In this document: piece after piece, positions 8,929-24,981 of the stretch
Layout: every line of letters begins with the position of its first letter
How positions within the stretch are numbered: position 1 is the stretch's first letter
NCBI GenBank assembly: GCA_903881215.1
Contig: CAIRSO010000128.1
Span: forward strand, 1-38,222
Direction of reading: 5' to 3'
Length of the DNA: 38,222 bases
DNA from: an uncultured Bacteroidia bacterium
GTDB lineage: Bacteria > Bacteroidota > Bacteroidia > Bacteroidales > Prolixibacteraceae
Position numbers and translations under genes: made by a program
The notes under the pieces: model-generated
Databases searched by the model: none
Told to the model about the DNA's origin: nothing
What the model saw: the letters and a program-made list of their open reading frames with translations, nothing else

Positions 8929-9156
8929 CTAATCCTTTGGACTGTTTCTCTCTATTTCATTGAGGAGCCGCAAGGTCTCTTCTGCCTCTTCAGCATCGAC
9001 CTTCTGAATGGCGAATCCGGCATGAAGCATCACATAATCGCCGACATGAACGTCGTCCAGCATCAGCAGGCTTGCTTGATATTCAACATCTTCAATGGAA
9101 ACCAGGGCACTTGGTCCGTTTACACTGAGCACTTTTGCAGGTATGGCTAAACACAT
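8929..9156 (-). CDS. hypC: Hydrogenase assembly chaperone HypC
   Basis: N-terminal MCLAIP with the essential Cys2. 75 aa. 10-nt overlap with the hypF stop. Confidence 0.9.
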   Translation of the reverse strand: MCLAIPAKVLSVNGPSALVSIEDVEYQASLLMLDDVHVGDYVMLHAGFAIQKVDAEEAEETLRLLNEIERNSPKD

Positions 9157-11420
9157 TTTAATTCCCTCCTTTTTGCCGCGATGGCCATTTGTCCCAGAGC
9201 AATTCCCCCGTCGTTGGTGGGGATTGAAGCATGGGAGAATACTTCAAAATTATTTTCCCTTAGTTTGGTTTCAGCTCCTTCCAGCAGGATTTTGTTTTGG
9301 AAAACACCTCCGGAAAGCACCACTTTTCGAATGCCTGTGTTATTACTTATTGTTTCGACTGTCTCAAATATAACTGAAATAATGGTCTGATGGAACTTTG
9401 CCGCAATTCTTCCGGGTTCAACCCCATTGTTTACATCGTTGACTATTCCGCGAATGGTATCGTCGAAATTAATTGATTCCCCGAGGCGGAAAGCATACTT
9501 CTCATTGCCAGAAAAATCTGCTTGCGACAAGGCCTCCAGCAGCATCGGTCCCTGGGCGGAGAAGGCTGCCACCTGACAAATTCCCAGGATGGAAGCAACC
9601 GCATCGAACAACCTTCCGGCACTGGAGGTAAGCGGACAGTTAACATTCTGGTCGATCATCCGCACAAGCATCTCTACTTTTTCTTCTTCAACCTGCCTCA
9701 ACGGCGGAAGGTCCATCTTTATAAATTCCCTGCCATACACCTTTTTCAAATAGGAGACGGCCATCCGCCAGGGTTCTTCATTGGCCATATCCCCACCGGG
9801 CAAGGGTACATATTCAAAATGGGAACGGCGGGAAAAATCGCTTAAGTCGCAGACGAAGAATTCTGCACCCCAGATATTTCCGTCGGTACCATATCCTGTA
9901 CCATCAAAAGAGACACCAATAACGGGCTCATCCAAATGGTGTTCTGACATGCAGGAAGCGATATGGGCGTGATGGTGCTGAACGGCCACAACCGGCAGGG
10001 GTGCAAATTGTTCGGCGGTGCGGGTGGAGATATAATCCGGATGCAAATCCACAACCAACAAGGTAGGTTCAATGCGAAACAAGCGGATAAATTGCGCGAT
10101 GGTCTGCTCATAAAAGGTGGTCGTTTCCAGCCCCTTCAAATCGCCAATGTGCTGGCTCAAAAAGGCCTTTTCTCCCTTTCCGACACAGAAACAATTGGTC
10201 AGTTCGGCACCGAAAGCCACTATCCCTTCAACATTCAGCTTCAAATTTACGGGAGTGGGCACATAGCCTCGTGAGCGACGGAAGACCCTCTCCTTTTCGT
10301 GCATAATCCTGACAACAGAGTCGTCAGTTCTATTGTAAATGTCACGATTGTGCAAAACGATGGCATCGGTGCAGGATGAAAACTGCTCCAGCGTCTCTTC
10401 GTTTCCGATCAGAATCGGTTCGCTGCTGAAATTTCCGCTGGTCAGGACGATGGCATCCGTATTCAACCTTTCAAAAAGCTGGTAGTGGAAAGGCAAATAA
10501 GGCAGCATGACTCCCAATAGGTTCAATCCGGAATTGATCTGTTCCGACATTTTTCCTTTGGTTTGAAGCAGCACAATCGGCCTGCGCCACGAACAGAGTG
10601 ACTGCTCCTCCACCTCACTCACAACTGCATATTTTTTTACAGAGTCCAGATCGCGGAATAATACTGCAAATGGTTTGGCTTCGCGGTGCTTCAGCTTTCT
10701 TAATTTTTGGAGTGCCGTTTCGTTGAATGCATCACAGGCCAGGTGCATCCCGCCCAATCCTTTGATGGCAACAACCCCACCTTCGTGCAACAAATGAGCC
10801 AGCTGATCCAGGATAAAAGTAGTATCCGTGCCAACGCTTTTCCCGTTAACAAACAATTCATAGTGTGGACCGCAGACGTTGCAGGCAACAGGTTGTGCAT
10901 GAAATCTGCGGTCGGTAATCTCTTCGTACTCTCTGTTGCAATCAGGACACATTTGAAATGGTGCCATCGTGGTTTTGGCACGATCATAAGGCAGGTCGCG
11001 GATGATGGTGAAACGCGGTCCGCAGTTGGTGCAATTCACAAAGGGATAATCCAGCCGGTTTCCTGGCTTTCGAATATCCTCCATGCATTCTTCGCAGACA
11101 GCGATATCCGGACAAATTTCGGTGATCTCTTCAGAAACATTATGACTTCCCAGGATCCGGAAGTCCGGAAATTCTTCCAAAGCTATTTCCTTTGACTGCA
11201 CCTCTTCGATGATGGCAGCTGCAGGAGCTTCGACCCTTAGCGCATGTTGAAAAACTGCAATCTGCTCAAGCTTTCCGGTAACCCGGATGACCACACTTTC
11301 GTTGGTGTTTTGCACCCAGCCATTGAGGGCAAATTTCTGTGTCTGCCGATAGACAAAGGGTCGAAATCCGACTCCCTGAACCAAGCCTCTTACGGTGATT
11401 TGAATCGTGTGGTTGTTCAA
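9147..11420 (-). CDS. hypF: Carbamoyltransferase HypF
   Basis: Acylphosphatase-like N-terminus (VRGLVQGVGFRPFVY). Two CxxC...CxxCGPR zinc fingers (CEEC..CTNCGPRF; CPDC..CNVCGP). YrdC-like and Kae1-like regions. 757 aa. Confidence 0.95.
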   Translation of the reverse strand: MNNHTIQITVRGLVQGVGFRPFVYRQTQKFALNGWVQNTNESVVIRVTGKLEQIAVFQHALRVEAPAAAIIEEVQSKEIALEEFPDFRILGSHNVSEEITEICPDIAVCEECMEDIRKPGNRLDYPFVNCTNCGPRFTIIRDLPYDRAKTTMAPFQMCPDCNREYEEITDRRFHAQPVACNVCGPHYELFVNGKSVGTDTTFILDQLAHLLHEGGVVAIKGLGGMHLACDAFNETALQKLRKLKHREAKPFAVLFRDLDSVKKYAVVSEVEEQSLCSWRRPIVLLQTKGKMSEQINSGLNLLGVMLPYLPFHYQLFERLNTDAIVLTSGNFSSEPILIGNEETLEQFSSCTDAIVLHNRDIYNRTDDSVVRIMHEKERVFRRSRGYVPTPVNLKLNVEGIVAFGAELTNCFCVGKGEKAFLSQHIGDLKGLETTTFYEQTIAQFIRLFRIEPTLLVVDLHPDYISTRTAEQFAPLPVVAVQHHHAHIASCMSEHHLDEPVIGVSFDGTGYGTDGNIWGAEFFVCDLSDFSRRSHFEYVPLPGGDMANEEPWRMAVSYLKKVYGREFIKMDLPPLRQVEEEKVEMLVRMIDQNVNCPLTSSAGRLFDAVASILGICQVAAFSAQGPMLLEALSQADFSGNEKYAFRLGESINFDDTIRGIVNDVNNGVEPGRIAAKFHQTIISVIFETVETISNNTGIRKVVLSGGVFQNKILLEGAETKLRENNFEVFSHASIPTNDGGIALGQMAIAAKRRELKCV

Positions 11421-15200: not shown

Positions 15201-15269
15201 GAGGCATGAGCCGGTCAGGCGTTTTTCGATGGCCGATTCAAGGGCTTGTTCGTTGGTTAGGCTTGTCAT
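12222..15269 (-). CDS. hsdR: Type I restriction enzyme R subunit
   Basis: 1015 aa. Walker A QHSAGSGKS and DEAH box IIDEAHSS. N-terminal nuclease-like region. Typical type I HsdR C-terminal helical region. Co-oriented with hsdM and hsdS. Confidence 0.95.
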   Translation of the reverse strand: MTSLTNEQALESAIEKRLTGSCLEELRELGLTVDSGTERAELYRTGKGYFMGSPFDFNAKYAIDEKLFWSFLETTQKEELAKLQKQSDWKLKILDRLDRMIKKYGIIRLLRKGLEVDDASFTLFYVLPLASSSDAVKANFENNRFSVTRQLRYSLDNPGEEIDMVLFVNGLPFSTLELKNHWTGQNAKVHGQNQYKYKRDTTQPLLNFGRCLVHFAVDTDEVYMTTKLNGAGTFFLPFNLGHNFGKGNPPNPFGHKTAYLWDEVLTRQSLANIIQHFVRFDGKDSDSLSKKTLYFPRYHQMDVVRKLIADASHKGVGQTYLIQHSAGSGKSNSITWAAFQLIETYPENDAVPGNKGISNPLFDSVIVVTDRRLLDKQLRENIRDFSEVKNIVAAAYSSKELKENLESGKKINITTIQKFPFIVDGIADLSDKRFAVIIDEAHSSQSGSAADNLNRAMGNSGNEEEDPDPQDKILEAMRSRKMRNNASYLAFTATPKNNTLEKFGVCQEDGKYKPFHLYSMKQAIEEGFILDVLANYTTYRSYYEIEKSIEDNPLFDTIKAQKKLRAYVERHEQTIATKAEIMLDHFISRIVNTKKLKGQAKAMVATQSIEAAIRYYFAIHNLLKAKGDPFKVLIAFSGKKTVDGIEYSEESINGFGEKDTRDQFDTDDYRMLVVANKYLTGFDQPKLTAMYVDKKLQYVMAVQALSRLNRSADKLGKKTEDLFVLDFFNSVDDIKESFDPFYTATSLSRATDVNVLHELKANLDDVGVYEWLEVEDFVEKYFKGVNAQELSPIIDFAADRFNSGLELDDNAKADFKIKAKQFVKIYGQMASILPYEVVKWEKLFWFLKFLIPKLLIVDPTKDALDELLNSVDLSTYGLERVKLSANIGLDASETELEPQNPNPRSSHGGELIEDPLDLIIRSFNERWFQGWEATPEEQRVKFVHLAQSMRTHPDFKEKYADNADSQNREIAFKKIFDEVMAKQRKSELDLYRLVAKDDAFKSAMQDTLKRILMAS

Positions 15270-17110
15270 CTTCGCAATTTATTTTCCAGTTGTTTTTTTA
15301 AGGCTATTCCTTTGGCAGTTAGTCGGTATTTCTGATTTGGATGATTTGGTTTATCAGGATGCGTCAAAGCAATATACCCCAAATCGAGCGACGGCAAAAT
15401 GTATTGCTTTCTGAAAAAATCATCATGTTTAAGATCGAGTTTTTGCATAATTTCTGACCGTTTCATCTCGCCCTCCAATGCAACTAACACCCGCTGGATC
15501 TCCTCCTTGATCAATTGGGTAACTTCCCCAGTAGCTTCCCCACTAGCTTCCCCACTAACAGGTTCAGAAATTTCTTCGGGCAAACGTTTTACGGCGGCCA
15601 ACAGGGGCAACATTAACTGCTCTTTCAGTGCGATTCCTTTGGTTGTTAAACGGTATTTTTGGTGCTTGCTTTTCGATTTGCCGGCCAGTACCATCTCTAT
15701 TAAATACTCTGACAATGAGGGGTCAAGATAATTTTTTACAAAGTGGGATCTGTTTTTTAGTTCAAGAATTTCCATAAGCTGGATCCTGCTCATTTCATCT
15801 TGAATTATCATCACCAGTCGATGCGGAAGTTCTGCAATTGCTGCATAAGTTCCGGTTTTATCATGTACGGTATCATGTATGGTATCATGTACGGTACCTG
15901 CCGAAGGTCTCTGAACAGTCAATTTAAATCCTTCCTCCAAGGAAATGGAAAGTGGCTCTAAACCTCTTTCTTTCAATAGTTTGTACATTTCTACAGTACC
16001 CGTGCCGTATCTTTCAATATCTCCTGTCAAAAACAGACAACCTGCAAGCAATGGATTGTGCGGATAAGAACTATGGGGATCTTTTAAATCACTAATATCC
16101 AATTCCGGCGGTAAACTGCCCGGATTGCATATTTCAATCCGGTCTTTAAAAACAGCAACCTGAATACTGCCTTTGCTGTTGTAATCGCGGTGAGCAACGG
16201 CATTGATAATGGCCTCAGCGATAACAGCCCTGGGAATTTCATAAATGGTCTCCACTTGGTTGCTGTGTTCTCTCGTACCCGTTGATAAGCTTAATTTGGA
16301 GAGGATAAAATTAACGGCTTCATCTGCCACTTCGAAGGCCGTACCTCCATATTCTTTGAAGTCTGGTATGGGCTTTTGAACCTGTAACCCATGAAAATGA
16401 GCACATTTGATGGTTGAAGATGGAAAGTACAACTGAGGATCGGGGGCAAAAGCCAACAGCGCACTGTTTACAAGTTTGCCTTCCCGGGTCATTTTCAAAT
16501 GTTTCAATACCCGTTCGACCGAAGCGGTCTCTTTAAGCGGGAAGTTGCGTTTTTTTCGGGCAATGGCTATAAACTCCCTGATTTTACTCTCATCCAGCGA
16601 GTTGAAACTTGCATTAGGATGCAAACTCTCGTCAAAATCGCTGCTCTCTATTTTGCCCGTTTGCTTTAAAAACAGTACACAAGAACCGTAAACTTCCTGT
16701 TTGAGGGTTTCAATATCGGTAAATTTCTTGCGAGAAACATCCTGCTCAATTTTCCGGATGAAGGCCATTTCTTTTAGTTGGCGTTCAATCCCGTTCAGAT
16801 TTTTAATGAAAATCCATCGGGGCAAATGCTCACTTTTGGCTTGATCGTATTCTCTTTCGGTAGGAGAAATACCTTCCGAATCTTCGTACCCGTACGTTTC
16901 ACCAATCAGGCCAATATAGATATCTGATTCTGCGACCTCACTGAGGTACACTTTCCCGGGCGAATGTGTCGTGGCCGGAACCTCTTCAAACAAAAAGGGC
17001 TCAAAGAAAGTGCCCAACAAAGGATCATGCCTCAGGTAATGGGCTAATTCTTTCCGTTCCAGGGCAAATTCGCTTTGGACACTCGATATGAAAACTTTGA
17101 ACCTTTTCAC
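15266..17110 (-). CDS. Uncharacterised R-M-embedded protein: DUF4062-like N-terminus + HATPase_c_4 (RecG-C-terminal-like) core + two tandem winged-helix repeats
   Basis: N-terminus KVFISSVQSEFALERKEL...SDIYIGLIGETYGY...SPTEREYDQA resembles DUF4062. The core AIAEAIINAVAHRDY...DRIEICNPGSLP...NPLLAG...ERYGTGT resembles the HATPase_c_4 module of AlbA_2/RecG-like regulators. Two roughly 90-aa repeats each end in QKYRLT(T/A)KGIALK. The stop overlaps the hsdR ATG (ATGA at 15266-15269). Confidence 0.6.
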   Translation of the reverse strand: MKRFKVFISSVQSEFALERKELAHYLRHDPLLGTFFEPFLFEEVPATTHSPGKVYLSEVAESDIYIGLIGETYGYEDSEGISPTEREYDQAKSEHLPRWIFIKNLNGIERQLKEMAFIRKIEQDVSRKKFTDIETLKQEVYGSCVLFLKQTGKIESSDFDESLHPNASFNSLDESKIREFIAIARKKRNFPLKETASVERVLKHLKMTREGKLVNSALLAFAPDPQLYFPSSTIKCAHFHGLQVQKPIPDFKEYGGTAFEVADEAVNFILSKLSLSTGTREHSNQVETIYEIPRAVIAEAIINAVAHRDYNSKGSIQVAVFKDRIEICNPGSLPPELDISDLKDPHSSYPHNPLLAGCLFLTGDIERYGTGTVEMYKLLKERGLEPLSISLEEGFKLTVQRPSAGTVHDTIHDTVHDKTGTYAAIAELPHRLVMIIQDEMSRIQLMEILELKNRSHFVKNYLDPSLSEYLIEMVLAGKSKSKHQKYRLTTKGIALKEQLMLPLLAAVKRLPEEISEPVSGEASGEATGEVTQLIKEEIQRVLVALEGEMKRSEIMQKLDLKHDDFFRKQYILPSLDLGYIALTHPDKPNHPNQKYRLTAKGIALKKQLENKLRR

Positions 17111-17204
17111 AATCCGGATGGTTTATGTTTTAAAGATAGCAATTTTTTTGTATCTTCTTTTCAATCAATTCATTTCGACCAATTCATCGTGATCAAACAA
17201 CAGT

Positions 17205-17227
17205 GACAAGGCATGCCTTGTCTCTAC
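17205..17227. repeat. Palindromic repeat GACAAGGCATGCCTTGTC(TCTAC) abutting the hsdS stop
   Basis: 18-bp perfect palindrome at 17205-17222. Same family as the two copies at 19974-20031. Overlaps the hsdS TAG stop (17224-17226). Confidence 0.85.
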
Positions 17228-18489
17228 GTGCATTTAACCACCATTATTTTCCCCGTTACCGCAGCATCAATCAAACTCGCCTTGTACTCCTTCAACTTCT
17301 CAATTTCCTGCTCTTTGAGGGAAATGGCGGTGGCGATTTTAACGTCAGTATGTTTTAGATATGAGACAATTTCATCTTGTTCTTCAATTGGAGGAAATCC
17401 GATTGCCATTTCGAAAAACATAGTTGAATAGAATCTTAGTCTTGAGGAGTGCAGCCCTGTTGAAACCCGATTGTAATGTGCAATGTAATTTATACTTCCC
17501 AAGAGACTCTCAATATACCAGGAGTTGAATATTCTCTTTTTTTGTCTAAAGATTGCGTATGATGGGCTTACAATTCCAGTACGATCAGATACCCCTAAGG
17601 CACCCATCCATGCCCACATAATATTAAATATCAAATCATCTTTCTGGCATAATTTTGAATTCGAATAATCTTCAGCCAGAAACATGGATACGTTCTTTTC
17701 AGAACGAGGTGTAACTCCCGTTAAATGAGATACTGATAGTAGTTCCTCCTCCCCGTTTACTGAACGGTCATTTATTTCATCGAAAAGATATTTGGCTCTT
17801 TTTACATCCCAATGCTCCGGAATCTCCCCAATCCATTCCACTCCGCTCTCTTTTAGTATGACATTGGGGTTTAGCCCACGGGTAACGGCGCGGTGAATCA
17901 ATATTTGTCTGCGTTCCTTGAGCAGTTCGATTTGTTTTTCCTTGATGCCAATGGCCTGGTCGATTTGGGCAGTTTTGCGGTCGAGAAAGGTGGCGATGGC
18001 GGTTTGCTCTGAGAGAGGAGGAATCAATGTAAGTAAGTTATTAAGGATATTTCCACTGACATGAGGGATACCCATGCCAATGGTTTTTTGTTTTAATTCA
18101 GTTTCTAAAAATTTTGAATAATACCACGCAAAATATTTTTCAATATTTTTAAAACTTATCTGAGCAACAGTTGATGAAATAACTCCGTTTCTACTTTTAA
18201 TGAATTCACCAGCATTAGATCCATCCCACAGTAACAAAATTTCTTCTTTTTCAATGATTTTTGCATTTTTATCCAACACCCATTGATTTTCTTCACCTCC
18301 TCTTAAGTATTCCATACTCATATAAGGAGGTAAATTTGAATCGTTTAGCGTTACAATTTTTTGTGGTAATTTACCTTTTTGAGTATCAGCAATAAATTTA
18401 AATCGTTTCACTTCCCAATGTTCCGGAATATCACCCAGCCATTCCACTTCGGAGGGTTTATAGGCGGGGTATTTTGGAAGCTTGTTCAT
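17224..18489 (-). CDS. hsdS: Type I restriction-modification specificity subunit
   Basis: Two target-recognition halves, each introduced by the duplicated motif IPEHWEVKRFKF / IPEHWDVKRAKYLF. Conserved coiled-coil spacers PPLSEQTAIATFLD and PPIEEQDEIVSYL. AT-rich. Confidence 0.9.
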   Translation of the reverse strand: MNKLPKYPAYKPSEVEWLGDIPEHWEVKRFKFIADTQKGKLPQKIVTLNDSNLPPYMSMEYLRGGEENQWVLDKNAKIIEKEEILLLWDGSNAGEFIKSRNGVISSTVAQISFKNIEKYFAWYYSKFLETELKQKTIGMGIPHVSGNILNNLLTLIPPLSEQTAIATFLDRKTAQIDQAIGIKEKQIELLKERRQILIHRAVTRGLNPNVILKESGVEWIGEIPEHWDVKRAKYLFDEINDRSVNGEEELLSVSHLTGVTPRSEKNVSMFLAEDYSNSKLCQKDDLIFNIMWAWMGALGVSDRTGIVSPSYAIFRQKKRIFNSWYIESLLGSINYIAHYNRVSTGLHSSRLRFYSTMFFEMAIGFPPIEEQDEIVSYLKHTDVKIATAISLKEQEIEKLKEYKASLIDAAVTGKIMVVKCT

Positions 18490-18519
18490 GCGTTGTCTGG
18501 TTGGGTAATAAAATCGGTC

Positions 18520-18558
18520 TCTTTCAATGGTGCAACCACCGGTTGCGTAATTGAAAGA
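18520..18558. promoter_or_regulatory. Nested stem-loop in the ORF6N-hsdS intergenic spacer
   Basis: tctttcaat (18520-18528) pairs perfectly with attgaaaga (18550-18558). Inner stem gcaacc (18532-18537) pairs with ggttgc (18541-18546) around loop acc. A second palindrome, atgaaatatttcat, lies at the ORF6N stop around 18580-18593. Confidence 0.5.
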
Positions 18559-18589
18559 CTGAAATTTTGGCTCTCCTGAATGAAATATT

Positions 18590-19510
18590 TCATGGTTTTA
18601 TTAAATTTAAAATTACTGAAGCGAAGTCATCCATTCTTGAAAAGGCGAACCATTTTTTGCCCAGGTCTTTAAGCGAGGCACCAATATGGTACAATTCCTT
18701 GTTGTCGAGCAATAAAAATCGGTCGTGCGTATGGGCTATGGTTTTTATTTCAATGGTTGGATATTGGAGATTGTGTTTTTTTAGATCCAACTGCAATTGT
18801 GGATTAATTTGCCTGGTGTAAACGGAGGCCGAAACATCCTTGTTGCGCTTGGCCAATAAAACCAGCACAGATTCGTCGATGTAATTGTCAATGAGTATGA
18901 TGCTTGTTTTTGCCTCCTTAATCAGTTCGGCCACAAATACATAAGCATCAAATATATGTCCTTCAAAGAATATTCCTTTATCGGGTACTTTTTCATGTCG
19001 TTCCAATGCATTGAAAACCTGTTCGAATTTTTGATCAGTCTCCAATTGCTTCATTTCAATTTTATCCAATCGCTGAAATAATCCTGCATTTGCCAATACC
19101 AATTTACGCATTTCAACAAATGCATTCATAATCTGGATACTCACCTTTATTGCTGTTTCGCTGCGTAATACTGCCGATAACATAGCCACTCCCTGCTCGG
19201 TAAACGCAAAAGGCCTCGAAGAAGAATGTTTTAATGATTTGATCCGGTCACAATTTGTGACCAGTTCATTTTTCTCATTTTCAGTTAATTGAAACCTAAA
19301 GATGTCAGGGAACCGTTCAATATTTCGCTTTACCGCTTGATTCAAAACTTTTGTATCCACCGAATATACCTCGGATAAATCCTTATCGATCATCACCTGG
19401 ACTCCTCTAATGGTGAAAATCCTGTTTTCAATTTCCTTTTGGTTGATTGCTATTTCCATACCATGCAGTTTTTTATCAATGTCGCCACACGTAGCGACAA
19501 TTTGAAACAT
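18590..19510 (-). CDS. ORF6N (KilA-N-like) DNA-binding domain protein with an uncharacterised C-terminal domain
   Basis: ENRIFTIRGVQVMIDKDLSEVYSVDTKVLNQAVKRNIERFPDIFRFQLT matches the ORF6N domain pattern. The C-terminal approximately 150 aa carry IILIDNYIDESVL...HTHDRFLLLD...IGASLKDLGKKWFAF. The start may be the internal ATG at 19459 (MEIAINQ). Confidence 0.7.
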   Translation of the reverse strand: MFQIVATCGDIDKKLHGMEIAINQKEIENRIFTIRGVQVMIDKDLSEVYSVDTKVLNQAVKRNIERFPDIFRFQLTENEKNELVTNCDRIKSLKHSSSRPFAFTEQGVAMLSAVLRSETAIKVSIQIMNAFVEMRKLVLANAGLFQRLDKIEMKQLETDQKFEQVFNALERHEKVPDKGIFFEGHIFDAYVFVAELIKEAKTSIILIDNYIDESVLVLLAKRNKDVSASVYTRQINPQLQLDLKKHNLQYPTIEIKTIAHTHDRFLLLDNKELYHIGASLKDLGKKWFAFSRMDDFASVILNLIKP

Positions 19511-19513
19511 CGA

Positions 19514-22006
19514 CTATCCCAATTTTAATATTTCACGGATTAAACCATCGCTTTCGCTTTCCAGTTTAAGGATATCGGCACTAACTTCCTCAATACTCCG
19601 AAGCGGTTTGTGCTGATAGAAATACTTGTTGAAGCTGATTTCGTACCCGATTTTGGTGGCATCCAGATTGATCCAGGCTTCCGGAACATGAGGCTTGACT
19701 TCGCGCAAAAAGTAATCGTAGATATTTTCTTTCAGCGGCACATTCTCGGTATCACGCAAATCACTTTCGGTTTCATATTCGAGGTATTCACCTTTTTTTG
19801 CAGTTGGGAAATAACCGTAGTCGGGCAACTGGCTTTCTTTGCAGCCCAAATGATCGAGCAGTCGCTCCAGCTTTTCGCCGGTCAGTTTGGTGGGGCCTTT
19901 GATTACCTTTTCGGCAGAGGCGTCGTACCAGGAGACCGCGTTCAGGATGGCATTTTTTTCGGAGGATGACACCGTAGAGACAAGGCATGACTTGTCTCCG
20001 CGAACAGAAACAGGGCATGCCTTGTCTCTACAGCATGCATCAACCTTATCCCTGAAAACATTGAAATCGTTGTATTCGGCAGTGCCAACGACCTTCATCA
20101 ACTGTTTGGCTGTTTTCAGCAAGTCGAGTTGCTTTTGCCAGGTTTCTTTGCTGACCAGGGCACGGCTTTGTTTGGCGTTGAGATTGAGTTCCTGTTTTTC
20201 AGCCCATTCCAGTATTGCCTTTTCATGTTTTGAAAGGTCGGAATAAACCTCTTCCCCAAACTGTTCAAATGCCCACTCCATCGGTTCCCGCAGGGTTTTG
20301 TCGAAACGCAGTCCGGCAATCCGCTCTTCCGTGAACTGAGCCTTCAGCCTCTTGGGACGTTCCACAGTCACTTTATAGTAGCCAAAATCGACGTTATCGA
20401 AAACCTTGGAGGAGATTGTACCTGAACTGTTTTCGATGCTGATCTCTCTGGAGGCAACCGACTTCATTTCGGCATACACATTCACTATTTCCCTGATATG
20501 TTCGGGGGAAAATTCGCAGTTCTTGTTTCCCAGGTTTTTCCGGAGTTTGCGGTAAAGCTGTCCGGCATCGATCAGCTGGACCTTCCCCTTTCGGTGAGGA
20601 GCCTTGTTATTGCTCAGTATCCAGACGTAAGTAGTGATCCCGGTATTGTAGAACAGATTGTTGGGCATTTGAACGATTGCTTCGAGCCAGTCGTTTTCGA
20701 TGATGTAGCGGCGGATATTGCTTTCCCCACCTCCGGCATCGCCGGTAAACAGGCTGGATCCGTTGTGTACCGAGGCAATCCGGGATCCCGGCTGACTTTG
20801 CGTCAGCGGTTTCATCTGATTATTATTTTGCTTTTCATTTGCCAGATGGAACTCCCAATAATCATCCGCTTGTGTGTGCAGAACTTTCTCTGGTCGTTTC
20901 ATCTTGTTGACCATCTCCATCAAAAACAGCAACTGTCCGTCTGATGAGCGGGGAGTGGCATCGGCATCTTCCAGGATACCCCAATAATTTTTGAGCTGGA
21001 TCTGGAAGCGTGAATCGATAATGTCTTTCCCGTCCTTGATGTATTTCAACTCGCTGGCCCATGATTTGCCATACGGTGGATTGGAAAGCATAAAATCGAA
21101 AGTGGTGCCTGCAAATTCATCGGTCGATAAGGTAGAGCCTACGCGGATATTCTCCGGATTGTTGCCCTTGATCATCATATCTGATTTGCAGATGGCGTAG
21201 GTTTCGTCGTTGATCTCCTTCCCGTAGAGATAGACATCACCCTTTGCCCGGATTTCACCCTCCTCGTCTTTCACGAAGTTTTGCGATTCGGTCAACATGC
21301 CTCCGCTCCCACAGGCCGGATCGTATATTGTCATCACAGGAGGAAGCATATTTTTCACCGGTTCAAAAATGATATGGGTCATCAGGTCAATCACCTCCCT
21401 GGGGGTGAAGTGTTCACCGGCCTCTTCGTTGTTCTCCTCGTTGAATTTTCGGATCAGCTCTTCAAAGACATATCCCATTCCCAGGTTGGTCAGGGGGGGT
21501 AGTTTCCTGCCATCCGGATCAACCTTTTCGGCAGAGGTCAGGTTGATATATGGAGAGGTAAACTTCTCCAGCACATTCAGCAATACATCTTTTGAGGCCA
21601 TGTGCCGCACCTGGCTGCGAAGCTTAAATTTATCAATAATCTCTTTTACATTGCTGCTGAAGCCATTCAAATAGTCTTCGAAATTGGCCTGAAGAATCTG
21701 TTGGCTATTGGTGGCAGTATCGTGCAGGCGTTGCAGGGTCCATGAACTTGTGTTGTAAAAAACATAACCCGACACATCAATCAAACCGTTTTCATCCCAT
21801 TCTGTAAATCCTGCCTCATCACGCTGAAAGGCCACCTCCTCCAGAACGGCATCCTTGGAAGGCTCGAGCAGGGCATCAAGGCGCCGCAGAACCACCATCG
21901 GAAGAATGACATCGCGGTATTTTCCGCGGACATAAATATCTCGCAGACAATCATCCGCTATGGACCAGATAAAGGAAACCAGTTTGTTGTGGGAGGCAGT
22001 ATTCAT
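19514..22006 (-). CDS. hsdM: Type I restriction-modification DNA methyltransferase subunit (long form)
   Basis: N-terminus LVSFIWSIADDCLRD, AdoMet site DPACGSGGML, catalytic NPPYG, C-terminal IGYEISFNKYFY. I prefer ATG 22006 over the tracked TTG at 22039. Confidence 0.9.
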   Translation of the reverse strand: MNTASHNKLVSFIWSIADDCLRDIYVRGKYRDVILPMVVLRRLDALLEPSKDAVLEEVAFQRDEAGFTEWDENGLIDVSGYVFYNTSSWTLQRLHDTATNSQQILQANFEDYLNGFSSNVKEIIDKFKLRSQVRHMASKDVLLNVLEKFTSPYINLTSAEKVDPDGRKLPPLTNLGMGYVFEELIRKFNEENNEEAGEHFTPREVIDLMTHIIFEPVKNMLPPVMTIYDPACGSGGMLTESQNFVKDEEGEIRAKGDVYLYGKEINDETYAICKSDMMIKGNNPENIRVGSTLSTDEFAGTTFDFMLSNPPYGKSWASELKYIKDGKDIIDSRFQIQLKNYWGILEDADATPRSSDGQLLFLMEMVNKMKRPEKVLHTQADDYWEFHLANEKQNNNQMKPLTQSQPGSRIASVHNGSSLFTGDAGGGESNIRRYIIENDWLEAIVQMPNNLFYNTGITTYVWILSNNKAPHRKGKVQLIDAGQLYRKLRKNLGNKNCEFSPEHIREIVNVYAEMKSVASREISIENSSGTISSKVFDNVDFGYYKVTVERPKRLKAQFTEERIAGLRFDKTLREPMEWAFEQFGEEVYSDLSKHEKAILEWAEKQELNLNAKQSRALVSKETWQKQLDLLKTAKQLMKVVGTAEYNDFNVFRDKVDACCRDKACPVSVRGDKSCLVSTVSSSEKNAILNAVSWYDASAEKVIKGPTKLTGEKLERLLDHLGCKESQLPDYGYFPTAKKGEYLEYETESDLRDTENVPLKENIYDYFLREVKPHVPEAWINLDATKIGYEISFNKYFYQHKPLRSIEEVSADILKLESESDGLIREILKLG
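19974..20031. repeat. Two tandem copies of the GAGACAAGGCATGCCTTGTCTC palindromic repeat, in frame inside hsdM
   Basis: gtagagacaaggcatgacttgtctc at 19974-19998 and agaaacagggcatgccttgtctctac at 20006-20031. On the - strand they are translated as ...CPVSVRGDKSCLVSTV... without breaking the hsdM frame. Confidence 0.85.
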
Positions 22007-22245: not shown

Positions 22246-24981
22246 TTGAAAAAGATTCAAATTTCACCATTTTACAGGATTGTCGTTCTCCTAATTTTAA
22301 TCATCCTTTCGACTAAAACATCGCAATCACAGGAGATTCCGGAGATAAAAATCACCAGGACATTTAATCAGACCCCACTTTCTGAGTTTTTCAGTTACCT
22401 GGAAGAAGCGTTTGGCATCAATTTTTTTTACAAGGAGGAGTGGATAAAAACTTCTGTGGTTAGCGGTGCATTCAAGAACAGTCCGGTTACCCAGGTGCTG
22501 AACCAGGTATTGACCGACAAAGACCTAAATTTCCGATTCTTCGATCTGGATATGGTGTTCGTCTATCCTAAAAGCCCGGACGGAAATGTAGTGCTGAGCC
22601 GCAACGAATCGCAACTGATTGTCATTGGCGATCCGCTGAATCAGGTGCAAAACAAAAGGGCCAAACTACAGGGGAAAGTGCTCGATGGCAAAACCGGTGA
22701 TCCGCTACCGGGGGCAGTTGTCTACAATCCGGAAACGAAAACCGGAGTGGTTTCGGATGCGAAAGGAAAATACATGATCGAGCTGCCTACCGGTGAACTG
22801 AACCTCAGAATCTCCTTCATGAATTTTGAAAACAAAAATCTCAGGATTCAGCTTATTCAGGATGGGAACGCCGATCTGGAGATTTTTGAAAAGACCCAGC
22901 AGATTGAAGAAGTCACGATCATGGGCGACAATAAACGTGCCTCAAAAGCCCAGATGAGCATGATCAAGATGAGTGCCGTTTCCATCAAGGAGCTGCCGGT
23001 CCTGATGGGCGAAGCCGATCTGATCAAAGGCATGGTGATGATGCCGGGCGTTCAAAGTGTTGGCGAGATGTCGTCAGGGTTTAATGTTCGCGGTGGAAAT
23101 ACGGATCAAAACCTCGTCCTGGTGAATGGTGCCCCACTATTTAATACCACCCATCTTTTTGGTTTCTTTTCGATGGTTAACCAGGATGCCGTCTCGGATG
23201 TGACGCTTTTCAAAGGCGGGATGCCGGCCTCATTCGGCGAACGGACTTCCTCCGTTATGGAGATTCAACTCAAGGATGGCTCCAACAAATATCTGAGCAT
23301 CAATGGCGGCATCGGACTTATCAACAGCCGGCTTTCCATCGAAGGACCGTTCGCCAAAAAGAAGAAAAGTTCTTTCATGGTAGGCGGAAGAAGCACTTAT
23401 TCGGACTGGTTGCTCCAGAAAACCAAGAACCCAACTTTCATGAACAGCGTGGCGCATTTTTATGATTTGAATGGCACGGCAACGATTGAAATAAGTCCGA
23501 AAGATCACCTGAAGTTGACTGGATACCTTAGCTCCGATGTTTTCAATCTCAACACCAGCACACTCTACCAATATGCAAATTACCTGGGTTCGCTCAACTG
23601 GAAGCTGAACCTGACCGACAAAATCATCTCGCAATTGTCGCTGGCCTACTCAAAATATGATCTGAAGGTGGACCAGAAAGACCCTTATCTACCGCTGGAT
23701 GACTATACCCTGAAATCAGGCATCCAATATGGGAGCCTAAAGTACAACTTGCTTTACTATCCCAACGAGAAACATCACATCAGTGCCGGATTACAAGCCA
23801 TAAGCTACCGCATCAATCCGGGTGAAATCGCTCCAACACTATCCAATTCGAACGTATTCAAATCCTCGATGCAGAAGGAGCAGTCGGCCGAGGTGGCACT
23901 GTTTGCGGACGATAACTTTGACTTGTCGGAGAAGGTCTCCGTTAGCATCGGATTTCGGTACACCGGCTTTTTCAATTTCGGACCCGGAGTGGTGTACAAT
24001 TATGCCGATGGAGTTTCCAAAAGCACCCACTCCATTATCGACTCAACCCTTTTCAATTCGGGACAGATCATTAAGTCTTACCAGGCACCGGAGCCCCGGC
24101 TGGCCCTCAAATTATTGCTGCCTAACGGCGGATCGCTGCGTTTAAATTATCAGCAGACCCACCAATTTATCAGTCAGATTTCCAACACAGCAGTTATTTC
24201 GCCGGCCGATTACTGGAAATCTGCCGGAACTTATCTCGCTCCGCTGATCAATGACCAGATCGCTTTTGGCTTTTTCAAGACACCAACCAAAGGGAATTTT
24301 GAGTTTTCGGCGGAGGCCTACTACAAAAAACTTCAGAATTTGCCGGAATACAAAAACGGCGCACTGCTCCTGATGAACACCCACCTCGAAACCGACTACA
24401 TCCCGGCAAGCGGCTATTCCTACGGACTGGAACTGATGGCCAAAAAGAGTTCCGGAAAGTTGAATGGCTGGATCAGCTATACCTTTTCACGCACTTTCCA
24501 GAAAGCCAATGGGCCGTTCCCGGAAGAGAAAATCAACAGAGGGGCCTTCTACCCTTCCATCTATGACAAGCCGCATGATCTTTCAGTGGTAACAAATTAC
24601 AATATCAGCAGGCGATGGCGCTTTTCGGGCAATTTTGTCTATTCATCGGGAAGGCCGATTACACTGCCGGAGCAAAAATACCTGCTGGGAGGAAATCAAA
24701 TCGTGTACTTTTCGGATAGAAACAGCTACCGGATGCCTTCTTACCACCGGATGGATGTCGCGATAACATTGGACGAAAACCTCAAGAGAAAACGGTCGTG
24801 GAAAGGAAGCTGGACCTTCTCGGTTTACAACCTTTATGGACGTAAAAATCCCTATTCGGTCTTTTACCGCAAGGACGCCTCCCTCCAAACCATGGATAAG
24901 GACAAGACACAATATGCCATCTATAAATTATCGATTATTGGCGTTCCCGTTCCTTCTATTACCTACAATTTTAAATTCTGA
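22246..24981 (+). CDS. TonB-dependent outer-membrane receptor with N-terminal STN-like and CarboxypepD_reg domains
   Basis: Signal peptide. STN-like region (PLSEFFSYLEEAFGINFFY). CarboxypepD_reg region (LQGKVLDGKTGDPLPGAVVYN...DAKGKYMIELP). Plug region. Long beta-barrel ending in the aromatic terminus YNFKF. TTG start as tracked. Confidence 0.85.
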   Translation: MKKIQISPFYRIVVLLILIILSTKTSQSQEIPEIKITRTFNQTPLSEFFSYLEEAFGINFFYKEEWIKTSVVSGAFKNSPVTQVLNQVLTDKDLNFRFFDLDMVFVYPKSPDGNVVLSRNESQLIVIGDPLNQVQNKRAKLQGKVLDGKTGDPLPGAVVYNPETKTGVVSDAKGKYMIELPTGELNLRISFMNFENKNLRIQLIQDGNADLEIFEKTQQIEEVTIMGDNKRASKAQMSMIKMSAVSIKELPVLMGEADLIKGMVMMPGVQSVGEMSSGFNVRGGNTDQNLVLVNGAPLFNTTHLFGFFSMVNQDAVSDVTLFKGGMPASFGERTSSVMEIQLKDGSNKYLSINGGIGLINSRLSIEGPFAKKKKSSFMVGGRSTYSDWLLQKTKNPTFMNSVAHFYDLNGTATIEISPKDHLKLTGYLSSDVFNLNTSTLYQYANYLGSLNWKLNLTDKIISQLSLAYSKYDLKVDQKDPYLPLDDYTLKSGIQYGSLKYNLLYYPNEKHHISAGLQAISYRINPGEIAPTLSNSNVFKSSMQKEQSAEVALFADDNFDLSEKVSVSIGFRYTGFFNFGPGVVYNYADGVSKSTHSIIDSTLFNSGQIIKSYQAPEPRLALKLLLPNGGSLRLNYQQTHQFISQISNTAVISPADYWKSAGTYLAPLINDQIAFGFFKTPTKGNFEFSAEAYYKKLQNLPEYKNGALLLMNTHLETDYIPASGYSYGLELMAKKSSGKLNGWISYTFSRTFQKANGPFPEEKINRGAFYPSIYDKPHDLSVVTNYNISRRWRFSGNFVYSSGRPITLPEQKYLLGGNQIVYFSDRNSYRMPSYHRMDVAITLDENLKRKRSWKGSWTFSVYNLYGRKNPYSVFYRKDASLQTMDKDKTQYAIYKLSIIGVPVPSITYNFKF

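Follow-up and report, generated by a model that had tools for sequence, protein, structure and literature searches.

In contig CAIRSO010000128.1 (assembly GCA_903881215.1) of an uncultured Bacteroidia bacterium of the Prolixibacteraceae, a stretch of 38,222 nucleotides which was analysed in full and is referred to here as the window, a gene was identified between hsdS and hsdR of a type I restriction-modification (R-M) operon which encodes an N-terminal DUF4062 domain (also termed NIR), a GHKL ATPase and two C-terminal winged helix-turn-helix (wHTH) domains (Table 1). The first domain has a TIR-like fold with the catalytic glutamate of characterised DUF4062 proteins in place, the ATP-binding residues of the second are conserved, the GHKL part is homologous to the chassis of the 'Schlatpase' proteins, and homologues of the whole recur within R-M operons. 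The reading that we favour, with moderate confidence, is that of a single-protein abortive-infection module in which a Schlatpase-type chassis would have had its nuclease effector exchanged for a DUF4062/NIR NAD+ hydrolase (NADase).

Domain architecture of the protein

A preliminary description of this DNA, made from the sequence and its open reading frames (ORFs), had proposed a DUF4062-like N-terminus and a search for a TIR or nucleoside deoxyribosyltransferase (NDT) fold, and both were borne out. DUF4062 (PF13271) was matched at residues 5-91 (E-value 3.4e-20; 72.5 bits against a gathering cutoff of 24.7), residues 1-135 alone scored 75.8 bits, and the Pfam E-values of the window protein lie far beyond chance. 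A Foldseek search with the model of the N-terminal domain, which has a flavodoxin-like fold of the TIR/NDT kind, returned DNPH1 (8rpt, target-normalised TM-score 0.71), the CMP N-glycosidase BcmB (4jen, 0.69) and NDT (8pqt, 0.57), along with TIR domains (approximately 0.52) such as TIR-STING (9lmq, 7un8) and the IL-18Rbeta TIR domain (7fch). The motif S82-P-T-E85-R-E87-Y88 was found to be invariant or nearly so throughout the family; in 87 homologues S82, E85 and E87 were invariant and P83 and T84 nearly invariant. Over residues 2-171 the family profile matched KpSwz, the Swarozyc protein of known structure (PDB 10wc/11cq/11cv; E 1.2e-7), and in this alignment the T-E of KpSwz 'sfTEkaf' pairs with T84-E85. 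Counting from a construct start at residue 15/16, we infer that chain residue 82 would be KpSwz E97, one of the catalytic glutamates described for DUF4062 proteins, which also include Eva01 E87, Vulcan E98 and TEP1 E1008.

Three preprints from 2026 describe DUF4062 (NIR in one of them) as the TIR-like NADase effector of abortive-infection defence systems. Swarozyc depletes NAD+ and aborts infection with the phage portal as its trigger (bioRxiv 10.64898/2026.05.01.722283), the Evangelion proteins deplete NAD+ and abort infection in a manner linked to phage replication (10.64898/2026.06.25.731849), and Avs2-NIR, Vulcan and Vesta likewise deplete NAD+ with infection aborted (10.64898/2026.09.04.749371). 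Each of these systems needs both the conserved glutamate and a variable auxiliary (AUX) sensor region.

In the middle of the protein, HATPase_c_4 (PF13749) was matched at residues 315-396 (E 4.2e-16), and the GHKL motifs, namely an N-box E299-x3-N303 (EAIINAVAHRD), a G1 box N329-P-G331 and a G2 box G369-T-G371, were all invariant or nearly invariant across homologues. When residues 150-410 were modelled separately (predicted template modelling score 0.84), the top Foldseek match was DIP2311 (3LMM; TMq 0.72, rmsd 3.6 A, 252 columns), followed only by pyruvate dehydrogenase kinase (PDK) and the GHKL domains of histidine kinases. By BLASTP, residues 182-402 aligned with residues 174-382 of an AlbA_2 + HATPase_c_4 protein of the IncC plasmid pNDM10505 (E 3e-22; L083:6482-7645), the AlbA_2 domain of which lies at residues 14-127. 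These two matches agree with the earlier likening of the centre and C-terminus to the chassis of 'RecG-like ATP-binding/putative regulator' proteins. The same description held that DUF4062 has replaced AlbA_2, and this also stood: DUF4062 occupies the AlbA_2 position on a homologous chassis, and no Pfam match to AlbA_2 (PF04326) was obtained in the protein even at E <= 1. The comparison supports a domain swap, in which the same chassis would bear a different N-terminal effector.

PF13749 has been described as a Bergerat-fold GHKL ATPase which together with Schlafen/AlbA_2 forms the widespread 'Schlatpase' supradomain; in RzAgo it holds ATP via E314/N318 and drives the tetramerisation which assembles the nuclease effector (10.64898/2026.05.29.728809). 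PADLOC matched residues 164-380 of the window protein to its models for prokaryotic Argonaute (pAgo) and Aga_SIR2-PNTD (the SIR2-associated pAgo partner), a result which this description of PF13749 explains.

At the C-terminus, Fic-like_C (PF21247) was matched in two stretches (E 5.5e-40), with HTH_45 over the second wHTH. The two wHTHs share 43% identity across a stretch of 75 residues (E 4e-17), and the AlphaFold2 model contains equivalent H-H-H-E-E-H units at residues 428-508 and 536-613; wHTH1 also matched the C-terminal domain of 4RGL (E 9e-5), with similarity restricted to 4RGL residues 252-336. The linkers ahead of both wHTHs, each built from an in-frame tandem repeat, have a predicted local distance difference test (pLDDT) score below 50, and at the same site the HDTx or TGQV repeats of homologues differ greatly in length and copy number, which suggests that the linkers are slippage-prone tethers of variable length or reach.

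Family breadth and genomic context

A protein search of approximately 5.8 billion clusters gave 1580 matches at E <= 1e-5, and architecture was judged on the best 120. PF13271, PF13749 and PF21247 occurred together in most of these, the exceptions lacking one annotation and being mostly short sequences. The majority are of approximately 500-515 amino acids with one wHTH, about one-sixth possess two and extend over the entire query, and three are present in a few, so that the duplicated wHTH noted in the preliminary description is real in the window protein but a minority variant of the family. No family assignment for the protein was obtained from NCBIfam. Homologues are named 'DUF4062 domain-containing protein', 'Fic family protein', 'ATP-dependent DNA helicase RecG' or 'ATP-binding protein' in databases, and JGI labels include RecG and 'predicted HTH transcriptional regulator'. 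The second, third and fourth of these database names mislead. As to a Fic family protein, the Fic/DOC catalytic domain (PF02661) is absent and the Fic-like_C winged helix is the sole Fic-type match; as to a RecG helicase, the Pfam scan found no superfamily 2 helicase core, the name stemming from the Pfam title of HATPase_c_4.

Genomes were also scanned, with one genome per species, and the best 80 of 576 confirmed stretches, a selection biased to close relatives, were examined. All 80 loci have the architecture of the window protein, in most cases with a single wHTH, and most match it near end to end, with several clipped by contig ends. They come mostly from Bacteroidota, with others from Legionella, Geobacter, Planctomycetota, Verrucomicrobiota, Nitrospirota and further taxa; the nearest relatives are in Prolixibacteraceae-type Mariniphaga, Mangrovibacterium, Draconibacterium and Gaoshiqia. 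Conjugative Legionella plasmids carry homologues, and those copies stand alone. In a phage collection, homologues were found of the GHKL part only and none of the full-length DUF4062 form. At three loci (L055, with 409 + 108 amino acids, L041 and L062) the homologue is apparently split into two ORFs and may be a frameshifted or decaying copy.

Neighbouring genes were called and labelled with profiles seeded from Pfam-verified examples, with Pfam spot checks. R-M genes were observed on the same strand within four genes of the homologue at no fewer than 39 of the 80 loci (a lower bound, as divergent R-M genes may escape labelling), or 38 of the 70 loci with enough neighbours, and an R-M gene was directly adjacent at 36 of the 80. 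By type, 34 of the 39 R-M loci are type I and five are type III. The position of the homologue relative to the R-M genes varies by clade: HsdR is encoded immediately downstream at 17 loci, an EcoEI-type HsdR upstream and HsdM downstream at seven, the homologue lies between hsdM and hsdS at two, and at three to four it is preceded by a UvrD-PDDEXK helicase-nuclease gene and followed by type III mod, sometimes with res. A 4-bp stop/start overlap with hsdR was found at eight homologous loci, involving two unrelated HsdR N-terminal families.

Beside the remaining homologues are found, among others, Wadjet JetABC, a reverse transcriptase accompanied by an SMC-like ATPase, GmrSD, a STAND-TPR protein, an integrase and a sacsin/NOV_C ATPase. 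When the family was ordered by neighbour joining, members within R-M operons fell among free-standing ones, and the proteins most closely related to the window protein (73% identity) are encoded outside R-M operons; autonomy of the protein is therefore favoured. These relatives adjoin Wadjet-like JetABC (DUF3584) genes or a reverse transcriptase and SMC-like ATPase (L003:1934-7375, L005:5065-10506, L004:2007-7913).

Some further arrangements were noted. A distinct one recurs in the type III clade (L034, L049, L063 and L046), where the homologue is placed between the gene for a UvrD-like helicase/PD-(D/E)XK nuclease fusion of approximately 945 amino acids and mod/res. At three loci (L017:1794-3425, L067:4908-6539 and L073:4454-6085) a gene for a 543-amino acid metallophosphoesterase/5'-nucleotidase directly follows the homologue, which recalls the NIR-phosphatase pairing of Vesta. 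An additional gene of 434 amino acids, with a weak match to HEPN_Apea (E 0.017), was seen between hsdS and the homologue in L001 (6658-7962) and also in L002, and may be a further embedded effector. The type I R-M operon of pNDM10505 has the order hsdR, TrlF, AlbA_2-GHKL, hsdS, hsdM; on both IncC (L083, pNDM10505, NC_019069.1 135349-146112) and IncFIA (L081) resistance plasmids, two genes are embedded between hsdR and hsdS, one for an AAA-like ATPase of the TrlF family and the other for an AlbA_2-GHKL (Schlatpase) protein.

The operon in the window

The ORF begins with a GTG at 17110 and ends with a stop codon at 15266-15268. This start fits because the homologues begin M/V-x-K-x-K-V-F-I-S-S, in agreement with the GTG, and because there is no ATG 5' of the conserved first strand and the frame cannot be extended upstream. 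The stop codon overlaps the start of hsdR in an ATGA. Conservation among HsdR homologues sets in at residue 3-4 (TNEQALESAIEK), therefore the hsdR start cannot be further downstream and the overlap, which the preliminary description had pointed out, is real.

The complete type I R-M operon runs on the minus strand in the order hsdM, ORF6N gene, hsdS, the DUF4062-GHKL-wHTH gene and hsdR. The ORF6N gene is a second embedded gene, in the hsdM-hsdS slot, which it also fills in locus L032. Directly 3' of the hsdS stop, 18 nt (GACAAGGCATGCCTTGTC) form a perfect palindrome that has a T-rich tail; it is terminator-like and may split an hsdM-ORF6N-hsdS unit from a unit formed by the gene and hsdR. An independent promoter for the latter pair was not supported, the terminator-like hairpin being the only element found: the sole sigma-70-like match, no better than expected by chance, falls within hsdS, and the Bacteroidota -7 motif TAnnTTTG does not occur in the 113-nt spacer upstream of the gene. 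Flanking the operon are housekeeping genes, with NiFe hydrogenase/hyp genes (hypF, 9147-11420) on one side and a TonB-dependent receptor gene (22246-24981) on the other. The GC content is 0.39-0.42 over the region of the gene, hsdS and the ORF6N gene (window positions 16001-20000) against 0.45-0.49 in the flanks, and this dip between housekeeping flanks is consistent with horizontal acquisition.

Table 1. Positions in the window of the gene, its parts and the surrounding operon.
Feature	Position	Strand	Basis or details
DUF4062(NIR)-GHKL-wHTH-wHTH gene, whole	15266..17110	minus	614 aa (amino acids); AlphaFold2 mean pLDDT 88.8
DUF4062/NIR TIR-like domain, residues 1-131	16718..17110	minus	Pfam PF13271, KpSwz profile match, Foldseek
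Predicted catalytic glutamate E85 (codon)	16856-16858	minus	aligned to KpSwz active-site glutamate
Long helix after TIR-like domain, residues 133-150	16661..16714	minus	model secondary structure; aligns with KpSwz helical stalk
Alpha/beta subdomain (~160-290) then Bergerat-fold GHKL ATPase (~291-402)	15905..16633	minus	Pfam, PADLOC, BLASTP, model
HDTx tetrapeptide-repeat linker before wHTH1	15859..15896	minus	repeat scan; 12-nt in-frame tandem repeat, 3.2 copies
Winged helix 1 (Fic-like_C type), residues 426-508, end QKYRLTTKG	15587..15835	minus	Pfam, model, 4RGL match
SGEA/TGEV linker before wHTH2	15519..15557	minus	repeat scan; 12-nt in-frame tandem repeat, 3 copies
Winged helix 2 (Fic-like_C type), residues 532-614, end QKYRLTAKG	15269..15517	minus	Pfam, model
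ATGA stop/start overlap with hsdR	15266..15269	minus	read from sequence
hsdR, type I restriction subunit, 1015 aa	12222..15269	minus	Pfam HSDR_N, SWI2_SNF2, ResIII, T1R_D3-like; PADLOC REase_I
Perfect 18-nt palindrome	17205..17222	minus	consensus match only
hsdS, specificity subunit, 421 aa	17224..18489	minus	Pfam, PADLOC
ORF6N-domain protein, 306 aa	18590..19510	minus	Pfam, PADLOC; PDC-S05, a candidate defence family (E 1.9e-121)
hsdM, methyltransferase subunit, 841 aa	19514..22039	minus	Pfam, PADLOC

Proposed function and alternative explanations

The protein is proposed to have three parts: a NADase effector (E85), a GHKL oligomerisation switch, and one to three (in the family) flexibly tethered wHTH domains for sensing or docking. 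At rest, the NADase domains would be kept apart or auto-inhibited. The tethered wHTH domain(s) would read an infection cue, either a phage protein or nucleic acid, the binding of ATP to the GHKL module (E299/N303) would lead to oligomerisation, and oligomerisation would bring the TIR-like domains together. The combination is mechanistically coherent because TIR-like NADases need oligomerisation and the GHKL domain drives it in the Schlafen relatives, and we infer NADase activity, ATP-driven assembly, a trigger and an abortive outcome for this architecture. As the gene lies between hsdS and hsdR and is coupled to hsdR, its product would be made together with the restriction subunit and would travel with the R-M system, and the embedding and translational coupling indicate selection for co-expression and co-transfer with restriction. 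The R-M enzyme itself appears unneeded for function, because many homologues are free-standing; the protein is probably an autonomous second defence layer, co-expressed with HsdR and mechanistically independent of the R-M enzyme.

Among described systems, Swarozyc shares with the window protein the N-terminal TIR-like DUF4062 domain and helical stalk, with the catalytic glutamate aligned, as well as a single-gene organisation, a C-terminal winged-helix-type sensor, occurrence in defence islands and horizontal spread. The protein does not fall within Swarozyc as defined (DUF4062, stalk and portal-binding AUX, approximately 330 amino acids): KpSwz has 326 amino acids and no GHKL ATPase, whereas the window protein has an inserted module of approximately 240 amino acids, made up of the alpha/beta subdomain and the GHKL domain, and R-M operon embedding is not reported for KpSwz. 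Homology between the KpSwz AUX and the Fic-like_C wHTH was considered and rejected, there being a faint QKYRLTxKG-like stretch with a domain score of -2.6 and no KpSwz match at E <= 10 with wHTH1 as the query. Evangelion (Eva01-04), Vulcan, Vesta and Avs2-NIR likewise join a DUF4062/NIR effector to a variable sensor and act by NAD+ depletion and abortive infection. By eye, F7 (Eva F11) and E87-Y88 (acidic-SYT/E87-Y88) of the Evangelion motifs are present in the window protein. By their descriptions these systems are set apart through their sensors (a short AUX region, HEAT repeats, STAND-TPR, or a small domain that has a phosphatase as its partner); the AUX region of the window protein extends over approximately 480 amino acids with recognisable domains, in contrast to the short AUX of the Eva proteins. 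In the text available of the Evangelion and Vulcan/Vesta/Avs2-NIR preprints no GHKL ATPase or R-M-embedded form is mentioned.

The Schlatpases (AlbA_2/SLFN with PF13749, with or without HTH, including the SLFN-pAgo RzAgo and DIP2311, 3LMM) share the alpha/beta subdomain, the GHKL domain and the C-terminal HTH chassis; they carry the same E-x3-N ATP/Mg motif, also occur in type I R-M operons and provide a precedent for ATP-driven effector assembly. The window protein has their PF13749 domain with its E-x3-N motif and glycine boxes, but its effector is DUF4062 where theirs is a Schlafen tRNA nuclease, AlbA_2 being absent. No account of a DUF4062-GHKL-wHTH protein, or of its R-M embedding, was found in the literature text searched (text, as distinct from figures), and a GHKL, HATPase or restriction-embedded form is absent from the accessible main texts and supplements of the DUF4062 preprints, again apart from their figures. 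The preliminary description had called the architecture one that could not be assigned to a described system; it holds that no described system matches exactly, but the architecture is common and both modules were characterised in 2026. With both modules and the R-M association of the Schlafen version already published, the combination can be viewed as known defence parts joined in a predictable way.

PrrC, an anticodon nuclease encoded in the EcoprrI type I R-M operon, is an abortive-infection effector which serves as a second line of defence. It combines an ABC-ATPase-like domain with the anticodon nuclease, is latent in the R-M complex and is released by the phage peptide Stp. The window gene is similarly embedded in a type I hsd operon, in an arrangement which recurs across loci, whereas no homology links the two proteins and the distribution of the family argues against obligate R-M dependence. 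On a PrrC-like explanation, which we regard as rather unlikely, the NADase would be held latent by the R-M complex or HsdR and would fire only upon a block to restriction, such as one imposed by DNA mimics of the Ocr/ArdA type or by Stp-like peptides, with the R-M enzyme as the sensor and the wHTHs as docking modules. The PrrC-EcoprrI precedent, the ATGA overlap between the gene and hsdR and its recurrence with two unrelated HsdR families, the adjacency to R-M genes at 36 loci (in other clades between hsdR and hsdM or hsdM and hsdS), the presence of the Schlafen paralogue in type I R-M operons and a reported Schlatpase-HsdS fusion would all fit such a guard. Yet R-M neighbours are lacking for approximately half of the homologues, the 73%-identity relatives sit by Wadjet or reverse transcriptase-SMC genes, the Legionella plasmid copies stand alone, and the characterised DUF4062 systems sense phage proteins directly; a single interface would also be hard put to accommodate partners that range over type I families A and B, the EcoEI type and type III. 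It is likewise unlikely that the DUF4062-GHKL-wHTH protein is a true guard of type I (and III) restriction and the TIR-like counterpart of PrrC. In that event the protein would be co-translated with HsdR, its wHTH tethers would dock on the R-M machinery or on translocating DNA, and failure or inhibition of restriction would lead to ATP-dependent assembly of the NADase.

The chemistry of the effector and the role of the wHTH pair each admit another interpretation. It is improbable that DUF4062 here is a nucleoside/nucleotide N-glycosidase or transferase (of the NDT, DNPH1 or BcmB kind) or a maker of a signalling nucleotide, which would deplete or modify nucleotides or phage-modified bases instead of NAD+. 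DNPH1, BcmB and NDT are indeed the best target-normalised folds, ahead of TIR domains, and DUF4062 has been placed between the TIR and NDT clans (10.64898/2026.05.01.722283), with Osinski et al. remarking that the activities of DUF4062 may be of greater complexity than NADase alone. All positive DUF4062 assays so far, however, are of NAD(P)+ hydrolases, and the nearest solved relative by sequence is KpSwz rather than NDT or DNPH1. Very improbable is a transcriptional regulator of hsdR. Its two wHTHs would bind operator DNA, its GHKL domain would switch in response to a ligand or ATP, and its DUF4062 domain would be a sensor without catalytic activity, the whole timing hsdR expression after transfer in the manner of a C protein. 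The two wHTHs, the JGI regulator label on homologues, the 18-nt palindrome just upstream and the position immediately before hsdR would suit a regulator, but an invariant catalytic glutamate and intact ATPase motifs are unexpected in a mere sensor, many homologues have no R-M gene to control, the palindrome directly follows the hsdS stop and has a T-rich tail, as a terminator would, and most family members have one wHTH and some three.

Several observations weigh against the abortive-infection NADase that we favour. Not every DUF4062 protein is a NADase, for human NWD1, NWD2 and NPHP3 were inactive as NADases in vitro (10.64898/2026.05.01.722283). The Evangelion Q/W/E motif is not obviously kept in the window protein, which has K53-V-Y55-L-S-E58 at that place, and there is no detectable similarity between its wHTHs and the portal-binding AUX domain of KpSwz. 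Some homologues lie among plainly housekeeping genes, and the 4-bp overlap, conserved with two unrelated HsdR families, could reflect a tighter link to restriction than co-expression. The activity, trigger and oligomerisation proposed for DUF4062-GHKL-wHTH proteins are, moreover, carried over from their homologues.

If the abortive-infection reading is correct, it would link the DUF4062/NIR NADases and the GHKL 'Schlatpase' switch, both described in 2026, such that one ATP-driven oligomerisation chassis would bear interchangeable suicide effectors, either a tRNA nuclease or a NADase. It would also define a large defence family, found in many phyla, with approximately half of its members in R-M operons and often translationally coupled to HsdR. 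Were the proteins true guards of restriction, the GHKL-wHTH part would be an effector-agnostic 'restriction-failure' switch common to Schlafen, SIR2 and NIR versions. The family would make a tractable system in which to ask whether restriction and abortive-infection modules are wired together, and in what way.

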